Virus record (IMG/VR): IMGVR_UViG_2671180986_000016
From: a virus
Taxonomy: Duplodnaviria > Heunggongvirae > Uroviricota > Caudoviricetes
Strand: one strand, 5' to 3'
Length of the DNA: 9,532 nt
The notes below the pieces were generated by a model. It searched no databases. It saw only the letters and a list, made by a program, of their open reading frames with translations, and was not told the DNA's origin. The translations under genes were made by a program, and so were the position numbers. Positions 1-6,533 of the stretch are shown here, in pieces. How positions within the stretch are numbered: the first letter of the stretch is position 1; each line of letters begins with the position of its first letter.

Positions 1-1239
1 ATGAGCAGCGCAATTCATAGACTTAGCGACACTCTTTTACGAAAATTAAGCGGATCACCAACCACAAAAAACGCCTTTTTTAATGACGGTGGCAATCTTA
101 GCGTAAGACATTCCACCAGCGGCCTGTTAACCTGGTATTTCACTTACAGGGCCGGAACTGGCAGGCAGGTATCACCGGAACGCCTGAGACTGGGCAACTA
201 TCCCGATCTGAGCCTGAAAGCAGCCAGGGAAAAAGCGGCACAGTGTCGCGCCTGGCTGGCTGAGGGGAAAAATCCGCGCTATGAGCTTAATCGTGCTGTA
301 CAGGATGCGTTAGCCCCCGTGACAGTTAAGGAAGCGCTCACTTACTGGCTTGAATCGTATGCAAAGGAAAAGCGCACTGACTACGAATCACTGAAAAGCC
401 GGATCAATAAACACATAATCAGCCAGATTGGCGCTTTGCCGTTGGAAAAATGCGAGCTACGGCACTGGTTGGCATGTTTTGACCAGATGGCAAAGCGAAG
501 CCCAGTATCTGCCGGATTTTTGCTACAGGTATGCAAACAGGCGCTTAAGTACTGCCGAAAACGACGATACGCAATCAGCAACGTTCTTGATGATATGGTT
601 GTCGGTGATGTGGGAAAAAAAGCAGAAATAAGCGAGCGCGTACTAACAAACAAGGAGCTTGGGGAATTACTCCGCGCCCTGGATGAAAAAATTTACCCAC
701 CGTACTACAGCGCCCTGATTCGCCTCCTGATTGTCTTCGGATGCCGTGCCACTGAGCTAAGACGCTCTGAGGTCCAGGAATGGGATTTTAAAGAAATGCT
801 CTGGACCGTGCCGAAAGAACACAGCAAAACGAAGGTAGCAATATTCAGGCCAATACCGGAAGCGATCTTGCCGTTCGTAACGAAGCTGGTGGAGCAGAAC
901 AGGCACACGGGATTATTGCTCGGAGAACTGAAAGGGCAATCATCCGTATCAGAGTACGGAAGAACGGCACACAGACGCATTAATCAAGCCCCCTGGACGT
1001 TGCACGACATCCGGCACACGTTTACAACGATGCTGAACGATTTAGGCGTGGATCCTCATGTAGTGGAGCAGCTAACCGCGCACCAGTTGCCAGGAGTGCA
1101 ACGAGTCTATAATCACTCCCGTTATCTCGATGCAAAACGTGACGCTCTTAATCTATGGGTTGAGCGTCTCGAGCTTCTCCAGAACAATGATGAAAAAATC
1201 GTTGTTATGACCCCGCGAATTTACTCCCAAAATTCTTGA
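1..1239 (+). CDS. int: Tyrosine-type site-specific integrase, P4-like (412 aa)
   Basis: Complete ORF from ATG at 1 to TGA at 1237-1239. C-terminal catalytic signature of tyrosine recombinases: conserved Arg context GCRATELRRSE, H-x-x-R in LHDIRHTFTTML, nucleophile Tyr region VYNHSRYLDAKR. N-terminal region resembles P4-type Int arm-binding domains. Followed by an alpA-like gene, as in P4-like islands. Confidence 0.9.
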   Translation: MSSAIHRLSDTLLRKLSGSPTTKNAFFNDGGNLSVRHSTSGLLTWYFTYRAGTGRQVSPERLRLGNYPDLSLKAAREKAAQCRAWLAEGKNPRYELNRAVQDALAPVTVKEALTYWLESYAKEKRTDYESLKSRINKHIISQIGALPLEKCELRHWLACFDQMAKRSPVSAGFLLQVCKQALKYCRKRRYAISNVLDDMVVGDVGKKAEISERVLTNKELGELLRALDEKIYPPYYSALIRLLIVFGCRATELRRSEVQEWDFKEMLWTVPKEHSKTKVAIFRPIPEAILPFVTKLVEQNRHTGLLLGELKGQSSVSEYGRTAHRRINQAPWTLHDIRHTFTTMLNDLGVDPHVVEQLTAHQLPGVQRVYNHSRYLDAKRDALNLWVERLELLQNNDEKIVVMTPRIYSQNS

Positions 1240-1280
1240 CAAATTACGGCTGTTTTTCTTGCGAAAAATGGCCCTCTAAA

Positions 1281-1317
1281 ATAAATCGTCGAATATCGGC
1301 AAATATCGACGATTTAT
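1281..1317. promoter_or_regulatory. 11-bp perfect inverted repeat ATAAATCGTCG / CGACGATTTAT with 15-bp spacer; candidate protein-binding site (operator or Int/AlpA site)
   Basis: Arms at 1281-1291 and 1307-1317 are exact reverse complements. Spacer and flank carry direct repeats AATATCG (1292-1298, 1302-1308) and ACTATCG (1326-1332). Sits about 40 bp after the int stop in a 410-bp AT-rich non-coding stretch. The AT-rich stem makes an intrinsic terminator unlikely. Confidence 0.3.
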
Positions 1318-1648
1318 ATGTGTCAACTATCGAAAAAAATTGAAATGTCTTCTTCTGAGTTCTTATTCTCTGTTTCTTGATTATTCCAATACCTGATGGT
1401 TTATCTATTTGTTTTTAATGAGGTAATTCAGGTGTCATGCCAAATGGCGACATTTTTTGTTGCGTCGCTTAAAAACTCGTGACACGATTTTAAACACTAA
1501 CGAGCTTCTACGAACCTTAGCGAACAAAGCCTTTAGCATGGTTGTGTTTTTAATTTAAGAGGTGAAAAAGAATCTAAGTAATATCCGATCTCATATATCT
1601 ACAGCTAAGAGAAAAGTTTATATACGTAATTTTTATGTAGGTTTTTGT

Positions 1649-1858
1649 ATGCGTGAAATAAATGAAGATCGCGTAATCCGTGAGGATGAATGTCGTAAGT
1701 TAACTGGAGTGTGCCGCACTACACGTTACGAACTGGAGAAAAAAGGGCGCTTTCCGTCACGTCTTAATCTGGGCGGTCGTTCTGTAGGGTGGCTGCTGTC
1801 CGAGGTTATGGAATGGGTTAAAAGCCGGGATCGCATTAATTCAGGTAAGGCAGTGTAA
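1649..1858 (+). CDS. alpA: AlpA-family (prophage CP4-57-type) transcriptional regulator, 69 aa
   Basis: MREINEDRVIREDECRKLTGVCRTTRYELEKKGRFPSRLNLGGRSVGWLLSEVMEWV... matches the AlpA pattern (HTH followed by LGxRSVGW...E...EW). ATG at 1649 gives the family-typical length of about 70 aa. The ORF-track start GTG 1562 (98 aa) has its AAGAGG motif directly abutting the start codon, so it is less likely. Confidence 0.8.
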   Translation: MREINEDRVIREDECRKLTGVCRTTRYELEKKGRFPSRLNLGGRSVGWLLSEVMEWVKSRDRINSGKAV

Positions 1859-1885
1859 AGGGGAGCATATGACACATAAAACAAA

Positions 1886-1905
1886 GGCGACCTGGGGCGG
1901 TCGCC
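1886..1905. terminator. GC-rich hairpin GGCGACC-TGGGGC-GGTCGCC flanked by A-tract (left) and T-run (right); probable bidirectional intrinsic terminator between convergent alpA and the leftward transcript
   Basis: Perfect 7-bp stem (1886-1892 / 1899-1905) with 6-nt loop. On the minus strand the hairpin is followed by TTTGTTTTAT (reverse complement of 1876-1885), a good U-tract. On the plus strand it is followed by AGTTTGG, a weaker one. Confidence 0.4.
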
Positions 1906-1969
1906 AGTTTGGAAACACTAAACATAAGCATGTCAATGATAGCCGCTATCAGGCTGGTGGGCAATGCTA

Positions 1970-2146
1970 TCAGTCTGTTTCAGTGCGTTGCCATAACTGC
2001 GAAGCTCTCTCCTTTGATGAGTATTCTTTAAGGTACTTCTCAAGGGCAAAAGAACACGGCGCGAATCGTTCTGATTCATGCTCTTTCTTTCTGCGTCGTC
2101 TTTTTCGTGCAGGTGATGTTTTTTTGGTTGATTCTTCGTTGGTCAT
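1970..2146 (-). CDS. Candidate small basic ORF (58 aa, MTNEESTKKTSPARKRRRRKKEHESERFAPCSFALEKYLKEYSSKERASQLWQRTETD); speculative
   Basis: Hand translation of the minus strand: ATG at 2146, stop at 1970-1972. It is in the same frame as the upstream RHH-like gene (TAA at 2204-2206) and 19 codons after it. It ends about 65 bp upstream of the hairpin at 1886-1905. Below the ORF-track length cutoff. Weak SD (AGGCG). Lys/Arg richness could simply reflect a T-rich intergenic stretch. Confidence 0.2.
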   Translation of the reverse strand: MTNEESTKKTSPARKRRRRKKEHESERFAPCSFALEKYLKEYSSKERASQLWQRTETD

Positions 2147-2203
2147 TGTGTGCGCCTGTAAAGCAATGCGCCGGAGTTCCTCACACCACGGCGCTGATAG
2201 TGA

Positions 2204-2509
2204 TTATTCTGATTCTTTGGCCTTGCGGCGCTGGAGTTCTTCGCGTGCAACGGTGATAAGCTGCCCGATTTCCTCCGCTGCCTTGATGCCGATTTGTTCG
2301 ACATTAGCTAGGGCATCCAGTGAAGACACAAGGGGATTTTCTCCACTTCCTTCTGCCTGGCGCCTGGCGATCTCACCGCGTACAGCCGTAACTATAAAAT
2401 TCGCTTTAGTTTCCCCTGGCTGTAGGGATGCCTCAATGCCACTCACTACTTCATGTGGAAATCTGGCATTCAGTTGCTGTGACTTATTGTTAACAGAACT
2501 CCTGGACAT
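2204..2509 (-). CDS. Small regulator, probable ribbon-helix-helix (CopG/Arc-like) DNA-binding protein, 101 aa; candidate repressor of the rightward operon
   Basis: Minus-strand ORF with preferred start ATG at 2509 (reverse complement of 2507-2509), preceded by a strong SD GGAGGTG (reverse complement of 2514-2520) at 6-nt spacing. The longer track ORF (start 2656) would begin upstream of this SD. The N-terminus KSQQLNARFPHEVVSGIEASL fits the RHH beta-strand plus helix pattern (x-R-F-P-x-E). Divergent from the rightward operon across an operator-containing region. Confidence 0.55.
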   Translation of the reverse strand: MSRSSVNNKSQQLNARFPHEVVSGIEASLQPGETKANFIVTAVRGEIARRQAEGSGENPLVSSLDALANVEQIGIKAAEEIGQLITVAREELQRRKAKESE

Positions 2510-2540
2510 GTTTGCACCTCCCATTAATAACGGGATGCAG

Positions 2541-2607
2541 TGTAATACAAAAGTGAATACCAAAAAAGACTTGAAATGGTATTCACCTAAATGTAATGTG
2601 AATACCA
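2541..2607. promoter_or_regulatory. Divergent promoter/operator region: three copies of the 10-bp site GTGAATACCA (two direct, one inverted) overlapping a candidate rightward sigma70 promoter
   Basis: GTGAATACCA at 2553-2562 and 2598-2607; reverse complement TGGTATTCAC at 2577-2586. Centre-to-centre spacing is 24 and 21 bp. Both direct copies are preceded by TGTAAT (2541-2546, 2592-2597). Candidate promoter: -35 TTGAAA (2571-2576), 17-bp spacer, -10 TAATGT (2594-2599). The middle site fills the spacer and the third site overlaps -10/+1. Confidence 0.5.
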
Positions 2608-2709
2608 CAAGTGCTGATACATGCAATTCAGCAATTGAAACGACGAAGCCCCGCAAGTGTCGTTACCACTCGCAGGGCTTCTAACCAACAACGTAAACGA
2701 GGAGCCGTT

Positions 2710-2907
2710 ATGGTTGCCGTAAATCATATACCACACCTTGTACACACACAAACGGCCTTTGTGTGGCGTTTTCTGGCCCTGAGTGCCGGAGAATCTCAAA
2801 TCATCCACGTAACCGCCTGGACGGAACGCGAAGCGCGTAACCGTTGCCCGTCAGGTTGTGTTGCTGTATTCGCCGCCCGTATTCGTCAGGAGGTGTGCCA
2901 TGCCTGA
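2710..2907 (+). CDS. Small protein, 65 aa, first gene of the rightward operon; possibly Icd-like (host cell-division inhibitor) family, function uncertain
   Basis: ATG at 2710 preceded by SD GAGGAG (2699-2704) at 5-nt spacing; stop TGA at 2905-2907 overlaps the next start (ATG 2900) by 8 nt. MVAVNHIPHLVHTQTAFVWRFLALSAGESQIIHVTAWTEREARNRCPSGCVAVFAARIRQEVCHA. The family guess rests on recalled resemblance (W/F-rich N-terminus, EREARxxL, FAxR...QEV) and typical position just upstream of the primase in P4-like islands. Confidence 0.5.
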   Translation: MVAVNHIPHLVHTQTAFVWRFLALSAGESQIIHVTAWTEREARNRCPSGCVAVFAARIRQEVCHA

Positions 2908-3140
2908 CATGACCAATTACCAGTACCTGATTAATCCGCATTTTAACTGTGAGCATGATATTGCTAAAAAGGTTTATTCCGCTGCGGATGGGGCTACTGA
3001 CAATATATCAATGGCTGTTGCGTCAATTGGTAGCCTGATGTGGCATGCGTCAGAAAATGAGGAATATGACGAAAAGGCTATGCGCATTGACATGGGTAAT
3101 ATTGGCTTGTTACTGGCAATGCTTGGGCAGTTTGATATTT
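2900..3140 (+). CDS. Unknown protein, N-terminal 80 aa visible, 3' end hidden in masked block 3141-4461
   Basis: ATG at 2900 (alternative ATG 2909) with strong SD AGGAGG (2888-2893) at 6-nt spacing. MPDMTNYQYLINPHFNCEHDIAKKVYSAADGATDNISMAVASIGSLMWHASENEEYDEKAMRIDMGNIGLLLAMLGQFDI... Its reading frame differs from that of the primase/helicase segment after the mask, so it is probably a separate gene unless the mask hides a frameshift. Confidence 0.45.
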
Positions 3141-5876
3141 NNNNNNNNNNNNNNNNNNNNNNNNNNNNNNNNNNNNNNNNNNNNNNNNNNNNNNNNNNNN
3201 NNNNNNNNNNNNNNNNNNNNNNNNNNNNNNNNNNNNNNNNNNNNNNNNNNNNNNNNNNNNNNNNNNNNNNNNNNNNNNNNNNNNNNNNNNNNNNNNNNNN
3301 NNNNNNNNNNNNNNNNNNNNNNNNNNNNNNNNNNNNNNNNNNNNNNNNNNNNNNNNNNNNNNNNNNNNNNNNNNNNNNNNNNNNNNNNNNNNNNNNNNNN
3401 NNNNNNNNNNNNNNNNNNNNNNNNNNNNNNNNNNNNNNNNNNNNNNNNNNNNNNNNNNNNNNNNNNNNNNNNNNNNNNNNNNNNNNNNNNNNNNNNNNNN
3501 NNNNNNNNNNNNNNNNNNNNNNNNNNNNNNNNNNNNNNNNNNNNNNNNNNNNNNNNNNNNNNNNNNNNNNNNNNNNNNNNNNNNNNNNNNNNNNNNNNNN
3601 NNNNNNNNNNNNNNNNNNNNNNNNNNNNNNNNNNNNNNNNNNNNNNNNNNNNNNNNNNNNNNNNNNNNNNNNNNNNNNNNNNNNNNNNNNNNNNNNNNNN
3701 NNNNNNNNNNNNNNNNNNNNNNNNNNNNNNNNNNNNNNNNNNNNNNNNNNNNNNNNNNNNNNNNNNNNNNNNNNNNNNNNNNNNNNNNNNNNNNNNNNNN
3801 NNNNNNNNNNNNNNNNNNNNNNNNNNNNNNNNNNNNNNNNNNNNNNNNNNNNNNNNNNNNNNNNNNNNNNNNNNNNNNNNNNNNNNNNNNNNNNNNNNNN
3901 NNNNNNNNNNNNNNNNNNNNNNNNNNNNNNNNNNNNNNNNNNNNNNNNNNNNNNNNNNNNNNNNNNNNNNNNNNNNNNNNNNNNNNNNNNNNNNNNNNNN
4001 NNNNNNNNNNNNNNNNNNNNNNNNNNNNNNNNNNNNNNNNNNNNNNNNNNNNNNNNNNNNNNNNNNNNNNNNNNNNNNNNNNNNNNNNNNNNNNNNNNNN
4101 NNNNNNNNNNNNNNNNNNNNNNNNNNNNNNNNNNNNNNNNNNNNNNNNNNNNNNNNNNNNNNNNNNNNNNNNNNNNNNNNNNNNNNNNNNNNNNNNNNNN
4201 NNNNNNNNNNNNNNNNNNNNNNNNNNNNNNNNNNNNNNNNNNNNNNNNNNNNNNNNNNNNNNNNNNNNNNNNNNNNNNNNNNNNNNNNNNNNNNNNNNNN
4301 NNNNNNNNNNNNNNNNNNNNNNNNNNNNNNNNNNNNNNNNNNNNNNNNNNNNNNNNNNNNNNNNNNNNNNNNNNNNNNNNNNNNNNNNNNNNNNNNNNNN
4401 NNNNNNNNNNNNNNNNNNNNNNNNNNNNNNNNNNNNNNNNNNNNNNNNNNNNNNNNNNNNNGCTATTCGCAGAACGCCATTAAATCGGCGGTCGATACCA
4501 TGAAGTTAAGTTTGCCTGTAATGGGGAATACAGCCCGTAACCTGATTGGATTCAGTAACGGGGTATTTGATACCAGAACAGGTAATTTTCGGGAGCATAA
4601 CAAAAACGACTGGTTGTTAATTGCCAGTGAATTACCTTTCAGCCCACCAGCAGAGGGGGAAACGCTGGCAACACATGCGCCGAATTTCTGGAAGTGGTTA
4701 CGCCGTTCGGTGGCTGAGAATGACCGCAAGGCGGATCGCGTACTGACTGTATTATTCATGGTGCTGGCGAACCGGTACGACTGGCAGTTATTCATTGAGG
4801 TAACAGGTCCAGGGGGAAGTGGTAAAAGCGTGATGGCGGAGATTTGCACCATGCTGGCGGGTAAGGCCAACACAGTATCGGCAAGCATGAAGGCGCTGGA
4901 AGATGCAAGGGAACGCGCGTTAGTGGTTGGCTTTTCGCTGATTATCATGCCGGATATGACCCGCTACGCTGGTGATGGGGCAGGGATTAAGGCCATTACA
5001 GGCGGTGACAAGGTGGCAATTGACCCGAAACACAAAGCCCCCTACTCAACGCGTATTCCGGCAGTAGTGCTGGCGGTTAACAATAACGCCATGTCATTCA
5101 GTGACCGCAGCGGGGGGATCTCACGTCGTCGGGTGATATTCAATTTTTCGGAAGTTGTACCGGAGAACGAACGCGACCCCATGCTGGCAGAAAAAATAGA
5201 AGGAGAGCTGGCGGTTGTGATTCGCCACCTGCTTACTCGTTTTTCTGACCAGGACGAAGCTAAACGCCTGCTGTATGAGCAGCAGAAATCAGAAGAAGCT
5301 CTGGTGATAAAACGCGAGGGCGATTCGCTGGTGGACTTCTGCGGCTATCTCATGTCGTCGGTAATGTGTGATGGTCTGTTAGTGGGTAATGCCGAAATTA
5401 TTCCGTTCAGTCCGCGCAGGTATCTTTATCACGCCTATCTGGCATATATGAGGGCACACGGATTCGGTAAACCTGTAACACTGACGCGCTTCGGTAAAGA
5501 TATGCCGGGGGCAATGGCGGAATATGGCAGGGAGTATATGAAACGGAAAACGAAGCACGGTTTGCGTTCAAANNNNNNNNNNNNNNNNNNNNNNNNNNNN
5601 NNNNNNNNNNNNNNNNNNNNNNNNNNNNNNNNNNNNNNNNNNNNNNNNNNNNNNNNNNNNNNNNNNNNNNNNNNNNNNNNNNNNNNNNNNNNNNNNNNNN
5701 NNNNNNNNNNNNNNNNNNNNNNNNNNNNNNNNNNNNNNNNNNNNNNNNNNNNNNNNNNNNNNNNNNNNNNNNNNNNNNNNNNNNNNNNNNNNNNNNNNNN
5801 NNNNNNNNNNNNNNNNNNNNNNNNNNNNNNNNNNNNNNNNNNNNNNNNNNNNNNNNNNNNNNNNNNNNNNNGGTGA
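3141..5876 (+). CDS. P4 alpha-type primase / SF3 (D5-like) replicative helicase; both ends lie in masked sequence, visible part is 4462-5572 (C-terminal helicase region)
   Basis: Visible 370 aa carry Walker A GPGGSGKS, Walker B-like hydrophobic strand ending in D (LIIMPD), and the D5_N / P4-family primase C-terminal domain pattern (NLIGFSNGVFDTRTG..., VVLAVNNNAMSF). The start is somewhere in mask 3141-4461 and the true stop is probably inside mask 5573-5871; the coordinates given are only the envelope of the open frame (first visible in-frame stop TGA 5874-5876). Confidence 0.75.
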   Translation, partial: XXXXXXXXXXXXXXXXXXXXXXXXXXXXXXXXXXXXXXXXXXXXXXXXXXXXXXXXXXXXXXXXXXXXXXXXXXXXXXXXXXXXXXXXXXXXXXXXXXXXXXXXXXXXXXXXXXXXXXXXXXXXXXXXXXXXXXXXXXXXXXXXXXXXXXXXXXXXXXXXXXXXXXXXXXXXXXXXXXXXXXXXXXXXXXXXXXXXXXXXXXXXXXXXXXXXXXXXXXXXXXXXXXXXXXXXXXXXXXXXXXXXXXXXXXXXXXXXXXXXXXXXXXXXXXXXXXXXXXXXXXXXXXXXXXXXXXXXXXXXXXXXXXXXXXXXXXXXXXXXXXXXXXXXXXXXXXXXXXXXXXXXXXXXXXXXXXXXXXXXXXXXXXXXXXXXXXXXXXXXXXXXXXXXXXXXXXXXXXXXXXXXXXXXXXXXXXXXXXXXXXXXXXXXXXXXXXXXXXXXXYSQNAIKSAVDTMKLSLPVMGNTARNLIGFSNGVFDTRTGNFREHNKNDWLLIASELPFSPPAEGETLATHAPNFWKWLRRSVAENDRKADRVLTVLFMVLANRYDWQLFIEVTGPGGSGKSVMAEICTMLAGKANTVSASMKALEDARERALVVGFSLIIMPDMTRYAGDGAGIKAITGGDKVAIDPKHKAPYSTRIPAVVLAVNNNAMSFSDRSGGISRRRVIFNFSEVVPENERDPMLAEKIEGELAVVIRHLLTRFSDQDEAKRLLYEQQKSEEALVIKREGDSLVDFCGYLMSSVMCDGLLVGNAEIIPFSPRRYLYHAYLAYMRAHGFGKPVTLTRFGKDMPGAMAEYGREYMKRKTKHGLRSXXXXXXXXXXXXXXXXXXXXXXXXXXXXXXXXXXXXXXXXXXXXXXXXXXXXXXXXXXXXXXXXXXXXXXXXXXXXXXXXXXXXXXXXXXXXXXXXXXXXX

Positions 5877-5964
5877 ACAGTTGGTGAATAGTTTTTGTGA
5901 AACTGTTAACCCATTAACATCATGAATAAAAAGGGAAAATTGCAAAAGGTGAACAGGTGAAGGG
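5872..5964. repeat. Iteron cluster of P4 alpha type-I sites (TGTTCACC, seen here as its reverse complement GGTGAACA); probable ori/crr-like replication region
   Basis: GGTGAACAG at 5872-5880 and 5948-5956 (perfect). Degenerate copies GGTGAATAG at 5883-5891 and GTGAAGGG at 5957-5964. Flanking repeats AAAATTGCAAAA (5936-5947) and AAAATGCAAAA (5967-5977). Located immediately downstream of the primase/helicase gene; more copies may lie in the adjacent mask. Confidence 0.55.
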
Positions 5965-6007
5965 TTAAAATGCAAAAATTTTATTTTATTGCTGTGAGGT
6001 AAAGCCT

Positions 6008-6253
6008 GTGACAACGAAGCACGCCAAAAAACCACAATCTCACGCCCTTGATTTGACAGAACACTGGCTGAGGGTGGCGATAAAAATCATCGACCGCAAC
6101 GCCGGGGAAGGATACGCGAAAGCACATCCCGAACTGATAAGCGCATTCATGACCACGACGGCGGCAAACTTTGCCACGCTGACAGAACGGGAGATTGCCG
6201 AAGCGGAACAGGTGACAACCATCAACGTTAAAACCGGAGAGCAGACAGCATGA
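6008..6253 (+). CDS. Hypothetical protein, 81 aa
   Basis: GTG start at 6008 with SD GAGGT (5996-6000) at 7-nt spacing; stop TGA at 6251-6253 overlaps the next gene's ATG (ATGA). Protein-like composition (MTTKHAKKPQSHALDLTEHWLRVAIKIIDRNAGEGYAKAHPELISAF...). No family recognised. Confidence 0.5.
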   Translation: MTTKHAKKPQSHALDLTEHWLRVAIKIIDRNAGEGYAKAHPELISAFMTTTAANFATLTEREIAEAEQVTTINVKTGEQTA

Positions 6254-6533
6254 CAGCACAGATAGCGGCTTACGGGCGGCTGGTGGCTGACCCGCAGTTA
6301 AAGACCACCAGCAAGGGTACGCAAATGACGATGGCGAGTATGGCGGTTCCCCTGCCGTGCAGCCAGGCAGATGACGGAACGGCGACGATATGGTTATCCG
6401 TCCTGGCGTTTGGCAGACAGGCTGACGCACTGGCAAAGCACCAGAAAGGCGAGCTGGTGAGCGTGGCGGGTAACATGCAGGTAAGCCAGTGGACAGGCCA
6501 GAACGGAGAAACGCGGCAGGGCTGGCAGGTTAT
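6250..6533 (+). CDS. Single-stranded DNA-binding protein-like OB-fold protein; 3' end in masked block 6534-7327
   Basis: ATG at 6250 with SD GGAGA (6236-6240). The visible 95 aa align by eye to the bacterial SSB OB fold: TIWLSVLAFGRQADALAKHQKGELVSVAGNMQVSQWTGQNGETRQGWQV compares with E. coli SSB [52 protein letters not shown]. Confidence 0.7.

Follow-up and report, generated by a model that had tools for sequence, protein, structure and literature searches.

In satellite phage P4 the ε protein is a helper derepression protein, and in the immI operon of phage P1, which runs c4 RNA, icd, ant, the gene coupled downstream of icd is an effector that acts on a repressor. The P4 operon runs from the C4/CI RNA through an Icd-like open reading frame (ORF), the gene for ε (95 aa), which overlaps the Icd-like ORF by 8 nt, ORF151 and ORF106 (DUF5375) to the α primase. 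Here we analyse a stretch of Caudoviricetes DNA of 9,532 nucleotides (IMG/VR record IMGVR_UViG_2671180986_000016; the window, meaning the whole stretch) in which a gene of 106 codons, orf106, lies in the corresponding position of what is, judging from gene content, a satellite of the phage-inducible chromosomal island (PICI) type.

Like ε, orf106 is found downstream of an Icd-like ORF of ~65 aa with an 8-nt overlap and upstream of a primase in the same operon, and the two genes are of similar size. orf106 is a positional analogue of P4 ε, not a homologue: alignment of a 113-sequence family profile to ε with hhalign gives a probability of 0.1, and the corresponding comparisons with P4 ORF151 and P4 ORF106/DUF5375 give ~0.1. 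By analogy the layout may also be likened to that of P1 immI, where icd is likewise followed by an effector gene, but Ant is a much larger, unrelated protein and a c4 RNA was not detected in the window. Taken as a whole, the explanation offered here is very probable: orf106 is a separate gene of an early operon, its product is predicted to be an acidic hairpin, and it may serve as an immediate-early accessory effector.

orf106 and the masked stretch

An earlier note, made from the letters of the window, described an ORF starting at 2900 and running into a mask that ends at 4461, and offered two explanations: a separate gene between the Icd-like ORF and the primase, or a primase gene carrying a frameshift. 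What that note read directly is all present in the sequence, namely the ATG at 2900, the AGGAGG, the 8-nt overlap with the Icd-like gene (ATGCCTGA) and the peptides ASENEEYDEKAMRID and GLLLAMLG, which are encoded by the visible orf106 codons. The rest was read from relatives, which were found through exact matches to the integrase and Icd-like protein sequences. These are Shigella sonnei and Escherichia coli chromosomes to which the unmasked pieces of the window are 99.9–100% identical by BLAST. In the main reference (L015, CP029794.1; 99.9% identical and free of insertion sequence (IS) elements) window position 3140 corresponds to 8431 and 4462 to 9445, and the hidden stretch is 1013 nt long both there and in three E. 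coli loci of 92–98% identity (L001–L003). Eight Shigella loci differ by at most one base across it. Coordinates under this mask are nominal, counted from its left edge for orf106 and DUF4222 and from its right edge for the primase. The operon then reads as follows.

2710..2907, +: Icd-like gene, 65 aa (NF033153 phage_ICD_like, E = 5e-18)
2888..2893, +: Shine–Dalgarno sequence AGGAGG, 6 nt before the ATG at 2900; read directly
2900..3220, +: orf106, 106-aa acidic protein, predicted α-hairpin (phrog_15327 family); L015 8191–8511 corresponds to window 2900–3220
3141..4461, no strand: mask, 1321 N for 1013 real bases, from alignment to relatives
3227..3526, +: DUF4222 gene, 99 aa, wholly under the mask; L015 8518–8817 (PF13973, E = 7e-17)
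3831..5621, +: primase/superfamily 3 (SF3) helicase, 596 aa (Pfam D5_N, DUF5906, Pox_D5); L015 8814–10604 (phrog_864, E = 7e-187)

The same four genes appear in the RefSeq or gene-caller annotation of E. coli and Shigella relatives. They are tightly packed: icd and orf106 overlap by 8 nt, orf106 and DUF4222 are separated by 6 nt, and DUF4222 and the primase overlap by 4 nt. Of orf106, 80 codons are visible (2900–3140) and 3141–3220 is masked. From the relatives, the mask covers the final 27 codons of orf106, the entire DUF4222 gene and primase codons 1–210. The primase is visible from 4462 to 5572, where it is 99.9% identical to L015, and its stop codon lies under the next mask.

The mask of 3141–4461 exceeds the real sequence by 308 nt, which is 2 modulo 3, and it is one of six in the window, all of them 17–32% over their true length. 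The other five are:

5573..5871: 299 masked positions for 227 real bases
6534..7327: 794 for 603
7932..8274: 343 for 285
8363..8493: 131 for 99
8586..8858: 273 for 221–234

The excess of 308 nt rules out any comparison of frames across the mask and accounts for the apparent conflict between orf106 and the primase. The difference that the earlier note had pointed to is there in the letters (orf106 in frame 2, the helicase segment 4462–5572 in frame 0), but the comparison is invalid. ORFs that span masks (2858–4483, 541 aa, and 3045–5876) were rejected as artefacts of N being read as X. Since the N-masks are not length-preserving, frames, gene lengths and distances across any mask of the window are unreliable.

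A frameshifted primase N-terminus at 2900, or a single primase gene over 2900–5600, is refuted. Such a gene had been suggested by the impression of a long reading frame from 2900 with primase/helicase sequence after the mask, and by the spurious 541-aa ORF. In every relative, however, the frame from 2900 stops after 106 codons; orf106 ends 321 nt after its start, nominally at 3220, rather than reaching 4461. The DUF4222 gene intervenes, and the primase, an intact ORF of 596 aa that matches phrog_864 from residue 3, begins separately, 4 nt ahead of the DUF4222 stop. The 106-aa protein is without similarity to primase families. The alternative of a separate gene was correct but incomplete, there being two genes between the Icd-like ORF and the primase. 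It had also been foreseen that a mask that does not preserve length might go with one continuous primase ORF from 2900; the mask is indeed of that kind, but there is no such ORF.

To judge from its conservation, orf106 is a real, separate gene under selection. All 82 loci examined (78 IMG/VR contigs together with L001–L003 and L015) keep the block icd–orf106–DUF4222–primase. In all 82, orf106 is intact, with 106 codons and an ATG start, and its ratio of nonsynonymous to synonymous polymorphism (pN/pS) is 0.35 over 56 distinct alleles, which together argue that it is more than a chance ORF. The corresponding pN/pS values are 0.42 for DUF4222, 0.63 for icd and 0.08 for the primase. The spacing is almost as constant, with the 8-nt icd/orf106 overlap in 77 of the 82 loci, the 6-nt gap before DUF4222 in 79/79 and the 4-nt DUF4222/primase overlap in 77/78. 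The position of the Shine–Dalgarno sequence reads AGGGGG in most E. coli relatives, as opposed to AGGAGG in the window. The 8-nt overlap implies that orf106 would be translationally coupled to icd. An identical sequence is already in the databases as a Shigella sonnei and E. coli 'hypothetical protein', encoded on at least 1000 contigs, and full-length orf106 is present in 474 of 5426 complete E. coli genomes (~9%), annotated as hypothetical throughout.

Protein family and predicted fold

The orf106 protein matches phrog_15327 over almost its entire length (E = 7.4e-71; residues 1–105 on profile positions 1–105 of 106) and phrog_6805 weakly; both PHROG families are of unknown function. Scans of the protein against Pfam, NCBIfam and PADLOC gave no match, and a profile search of the Protein Data Bank (PDB) with the family returned nothing relevant, its single match being unrelated (E = 0.6). 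The earlier note's remark that the N-terminus resembled no recognised family is borne out. Close homologues come only from E. coli and Shigella. An exhaustive HMMER search recovered remote relatives of ~95–106 aa that align without gaps over a conserved core, G-x-S-x-I-G-x-L-M-F-W-A...N-x-Y...D-M-x-x-I-G-x-x-L, and a subsequent profile search yielded 139 proteins from Klebsiella, Serratia, Hafnia, Raoultella, Yersinia and others. Of the 113 members that were aligned, all match phrog_15327 and 111 match phrog_6805; a Pfam scan of these 113 gave only scattered sub-threshold noise (HD_4, TPR). No match was found in the INPHARED cultured phage genomes by tblastn with E. coli, Yersinia and Klebsiella members, and no confirmed locus of the family among GTDB species representatives. 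This is an uncharacterised Enterobacterales family, and the gene itself is already annotated as hypothetical.

Dozens of homologues from Klebsiella, Serratia and Raoultella (P0037, P0041, P0049 and others) are listed in NCBI and UniRef as 'ubiquinol-cytochrome C reductase'. This identity was rejected: no bc1-related Pfam family is matched at E ≤ 1 by any of the 113 members, and the PDB search gives it no support. From these comparisons the name is probably a propagated misannotation. A 1222-aa TPR-repeat protein (P0022) matches the family profile with E = 6e-12 summed over nine stretches. We treated it as non-homologous, because the match comes from a repeated motif, VYDEKHP..A.TLGNLGLIL.DLGQYEEA, that resembles YDEKAMRIDMGNIGLLLAMLGQF around the hairpin turn; the likeness is probably convergent helix-turn-helix packing.

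AlphaFold2 with the 113-sequence alignment gave a model with a mean pLDDT of 82 and a pTM of 0.62, which replaced a poor first model from a shallow alignment (pLDDT 56). The predicted fold is a short N-terminal helix followed by one long antiparallel hairpin of helices 19–52 and 58–105. The protein has an isoelectric point (pI) of 4.46, with 16 Asp and Glu to 7 Lys and Arg, and the family median pI is 4.6. The hairpin tip (residues 50–61) has a family mean net charge of −3.8. Conservation is highest in the tip-proximal halves of both helices, and the conserved residues G39, I43, G44, L46, M47, A50, Y56, D64, G69 and L72 lie around the predicted tip. A membrane hairpin was considered and rejected, as the maximum Kyte–Doolittle mean over 19 residues is 1.46 and the tip is highly charged. 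The orf106 product is thus predicted from the model to be a soluble, strongly acidic two-helix hairpin.

In the model this fold is shared with WXG100/EsxA-type hairpins and with HP0062. Identity to these is 6–10%, however, and orf106 has neither the W-x-G turn motif nor a type VII secretion context: its turn reads ...MWHASENEEYD... (family consensus FWAADSDNY) and its neighbours are satellite and prophage genes. Foldseek gave E ≥ 1, and hundreds of unrelated hairpins score alike.

Genomic context and candidate roles

Outside E. coli and Shigella the family keeps similar company. In satellites of Klebsiella, Hafnia and Serratia an Icd-like gene is followed by one extra ORF of 56–62 aa, the family member and a downstream primase. 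These primases are of the D5_N/SF3 type in some satellites and of an unrelated Zn-ribbon/Toprim/DUF927 type in others. In lambdoid prophages of Yersinia the first gene after cI, or after cI-rexA-rexB, is the homologue; it heads the P_L-type early-left operon, where lambda has N, and the replication genes lie on the other arm.

Islands with closely related primases can also lack the gene. Among 67 IMG/VR islands whose primase is 88–94% identical to that of the window, 18 are without orf106; between their icd and a divergent DUF4222 lie small ORFs of other families, and none of the ORFs in this slot matches the orf106 family profile. Since 18/67 islands are without orf106 and other ORFs fill its place, the slot is an exchangeable cassette and the primase does not depend on orf106. 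Where it lacks orf106 (L166–L187), the slot holds tandem paralogues of a ~70–80-aa family or a helical ORF of 77–94 aa, either of which may be a functional substitute for orf106. The divergent DUF4222 of these islands (33–40% identity) lies directly upstream of the primase. The DUF4222 family includes RgdR, a prophage-encoded activator of the type III secretion system of the locus of enterocyte effacement in enterohaemorrhagic E. coli (PMC10877973).

The two unrelated primase types, the 18 islands without orf106 and the P_L-arm position in Yersinia together argue for an accessory effector rather than a replication factor. In this proposal the orf106 product would be made immediate-early and, at an early point of the lytic programme, would bind a host protein or one from a helper or competing phage; it would neither bind DNA nor form part of the primase machinery. 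The gene would occupy an exchangeable slot, the one where P4 carries the helper-derepressing ε. That the product is a protein-binding early effector in this general sense is a reading that we put forward tentatively, and that it is specifically an antirepressor seems unlikely. An Ash/AntA-type derepressor is already encoded upstream in many orf106-bearing islands, which makes a second antirepressor less necessary.

Several observations weigh against the effector proposal. The derepressor just mentioned is one, and searches of Pfam, NCBIfam, PADLOC and the PDB returned no homologue that bears a function. The likeness to P4 is also incomplete: ε is basic (pI 9.3) whereas the orf106 protein is acidic (pI 4.5), and P4 has a C4/CI antisense RNA before icd (RF01695, 74.9 bits) whereas no C4-type RNA was detected upstream of icd in the window, positions 1–3140 having no Rfam match apart from a spurious hit to mir-499. 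Finally, the gene structure under the mask was read from relatives that are 99.9–100% identical in the flanks.

The alternative that orf106 is a dedicated replication accessory, a loader of the primase/helicase or an origin-recognition partner, takes its appeal from the invariant, tightly coupled orf106–DUF4222–primase order in the 82 E. coli and Shigella loci and from the satellites of Klebsiella, Hafnia and Serratia, where the family also precedes the primase. Yet one family is paired with two unrelated primase architectures, primases 88–94% identical to that of the window occur in 18/67 islands without it, the Yersinia homologues sit in a P_L-type operon away from the O/P/DnaB-type replication genes, and the protein is acidic and without a DNA-binding motif; we regard this role as quite improbable. 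The 8-nt overlap and implied translational coupling in 77/82 loci would instead suit a two-gene module in which the orf106 product modulates, or acts as an antidote to, the Icd-like cell-division inhibitor, and an Icd-like gene is upstream in the satellites of the other three genera too. Against such a partnership, the extra 56–62-aa ORF separates the two genes in those genera, no Icd-like gene adjoins the homologues in Yersinia prophages, an Icd-like gene occurs without the orf106 family in P4 and in the 18 islands, and icd evolves much faster (pN 0.23 compared with 0.03 for orf106 in the same loci). This makes an Icd partner very unlikely.

An action on transcription, as a DksA/Gre-like coiled coil in the secondary channel of RNA polymerase or as an N-like antiterminator, would be in keeping with the Yersinia homologues at the lambda N position and with the conserved acidic tip of the predicted hairpin. 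The protein, however, has no counterpart of the globular domain that anchors DksA and the Gre factors. Where N proteins are basic and have an N-terminal arginine-rich RNA-binding motif, it is acidic (pI 4.46), without an arginine-rich stretch, and predicted to be folded and helical. The homologue is first in the P_L operon of Yersinia prophages, and the window gene is second, after icd, in a satellite operon. On balance a polymerase or termination factor of either kind is highly improbable.

Under the accessory-effector proposal, the acidic hairpin family may represent a new class of immediate-early hijacking effector in PICI-type satellites and lambdoid prophages, an extension that we consider doubtful. 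Candidate targets would be a prophage repressor, RNA polymerase or a termination factor, and a nuclease or defence protein, and binding of the target would switch on or protect the lytic programme.

The carrier island and its early operon

The PICI type was assigned on the presence of an integrase and AlpA, then a primase/rep operon in one orientation, a size of ~10–15 kb and packaging or capsid genes. The window has int at 1–1239, AlpA at 1649–1858 (PF05930, E = 2e-16), the primase and a ClpP-protease/capsid gene, and relatives of the island resemble capsid-forming PICIs (cf-PICIs) in having capsid, protease and portal genes. By this gene content the carrier element, which is integrated in Shigella sonnei and E. 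coli, is a phage satellite of the PICI type. No portal or terminase gene was seen in the island itself, which measures only ~10 kb. At window 7523–9532 (L015 12242–14122) the L015 counterpart is a single 626-aa protein in which a ClpP/SDH-type protease is joined to a Mu gpT-like major capsid domain; gene calls for other Shigella strains split it into two ORFs (381 and 252 aa).

Most Shigella sonnei islands (L004–L017 compared) carry an IS1 between int and alpA, at window ~1535–1544, and an IS3-family element of ~1.26 kb that splits the primase at window ~5349–5355. The window, as L015, is the IS-free form of the island. In L007 and L013 a further deletion runs from the primase into an 81-aa ORF. 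In the primase, D5_N, SF3-helicase (DUF5906) and Pox_D5 domains were recognised, but no catalytic domain of a primase; residues 1–140 (L015 8814–9230) match only phrog_2850, of unknown function, and TIGR01613 falls below its cut-off.

Two features lie upstream of icd:

2204..2509, −: YlcI/YnfO-family gene, 101 aa, divergent from the icd operon (RefSeq annotation of relatives)
2510..2709, no strand: intergenic control region of the icd–orf106–DUF4222–primase operon, with GTGAATACC copies at 2553–2606 and a GC-rich hairpin at 2645–2681

In the control region GTGAATACC occurs in three exact copies, two direct and one inverted, within 54 bp, and the cluster looks operator-like. The GC-rich hairpin has a folding energy of −22.8 kcal/mol (z −2.5), and homology among E. 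coli islands starts at this hairpin, at ~2646. On the + strand of 2510–2709 a search for a consensus sigma-70 promoter found none. The YlcI/YnfO-family gene adjoins icd in most loci. Its product has a weak Pfam hint (PSK_trans_fac, E = 0.018) and may be a regulator of the icd operon. Some gene callers place a 271-aa ORF at 1869–2684 (+), a low-complexity S/C/R-rich sequence without a family match; the conserved gene of this region appears to be the 101-aa minus-strand YlcI/YnfO-family protein and not this ORF.

Icd itself has a parallel in P4. The Icd of the window and the P4 'cI ORF' are both Icd-like by NCBIfam profile (NF033153, E = 8e-21 for the P4 ORF of ~64 aa), and BLASTP between the two found nothing. 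In the P4 genome (L105, NC_001609) the old annotation 'cI gene product (AA 1-137)' at 8168–8584 spans two features, the C4/CI RNA at 8420–8507 and the ~64-aa Icd-like ORF, which starts at an ATG at 8365 behind an AGGAGG of its own. This 'cI' annotation probably explains the label 'transcriptional repressor' on Icd-like families in PHROG.

In the searchable literature on DUF4222, PICIs, cf-PICIs, EcCIEDL933 and P4-like elements with Icd we found no study of orf106, and the genes between alpA and rep go undescribed in the searchable PICI and cf-PICI literature. As biology the finding is ordinary and of modest interest. orf106 is a conserved and, by its polymorphism, selected immediate-early gene with relatives across Enterobacterales satellites and prophages, in the slot of P4's ε. 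If its product were indeed a hijacking or anti-host effector, it would be a new component of an early operon that, in Gram-negative PICIs and cf-PICIs, is poorly understood.

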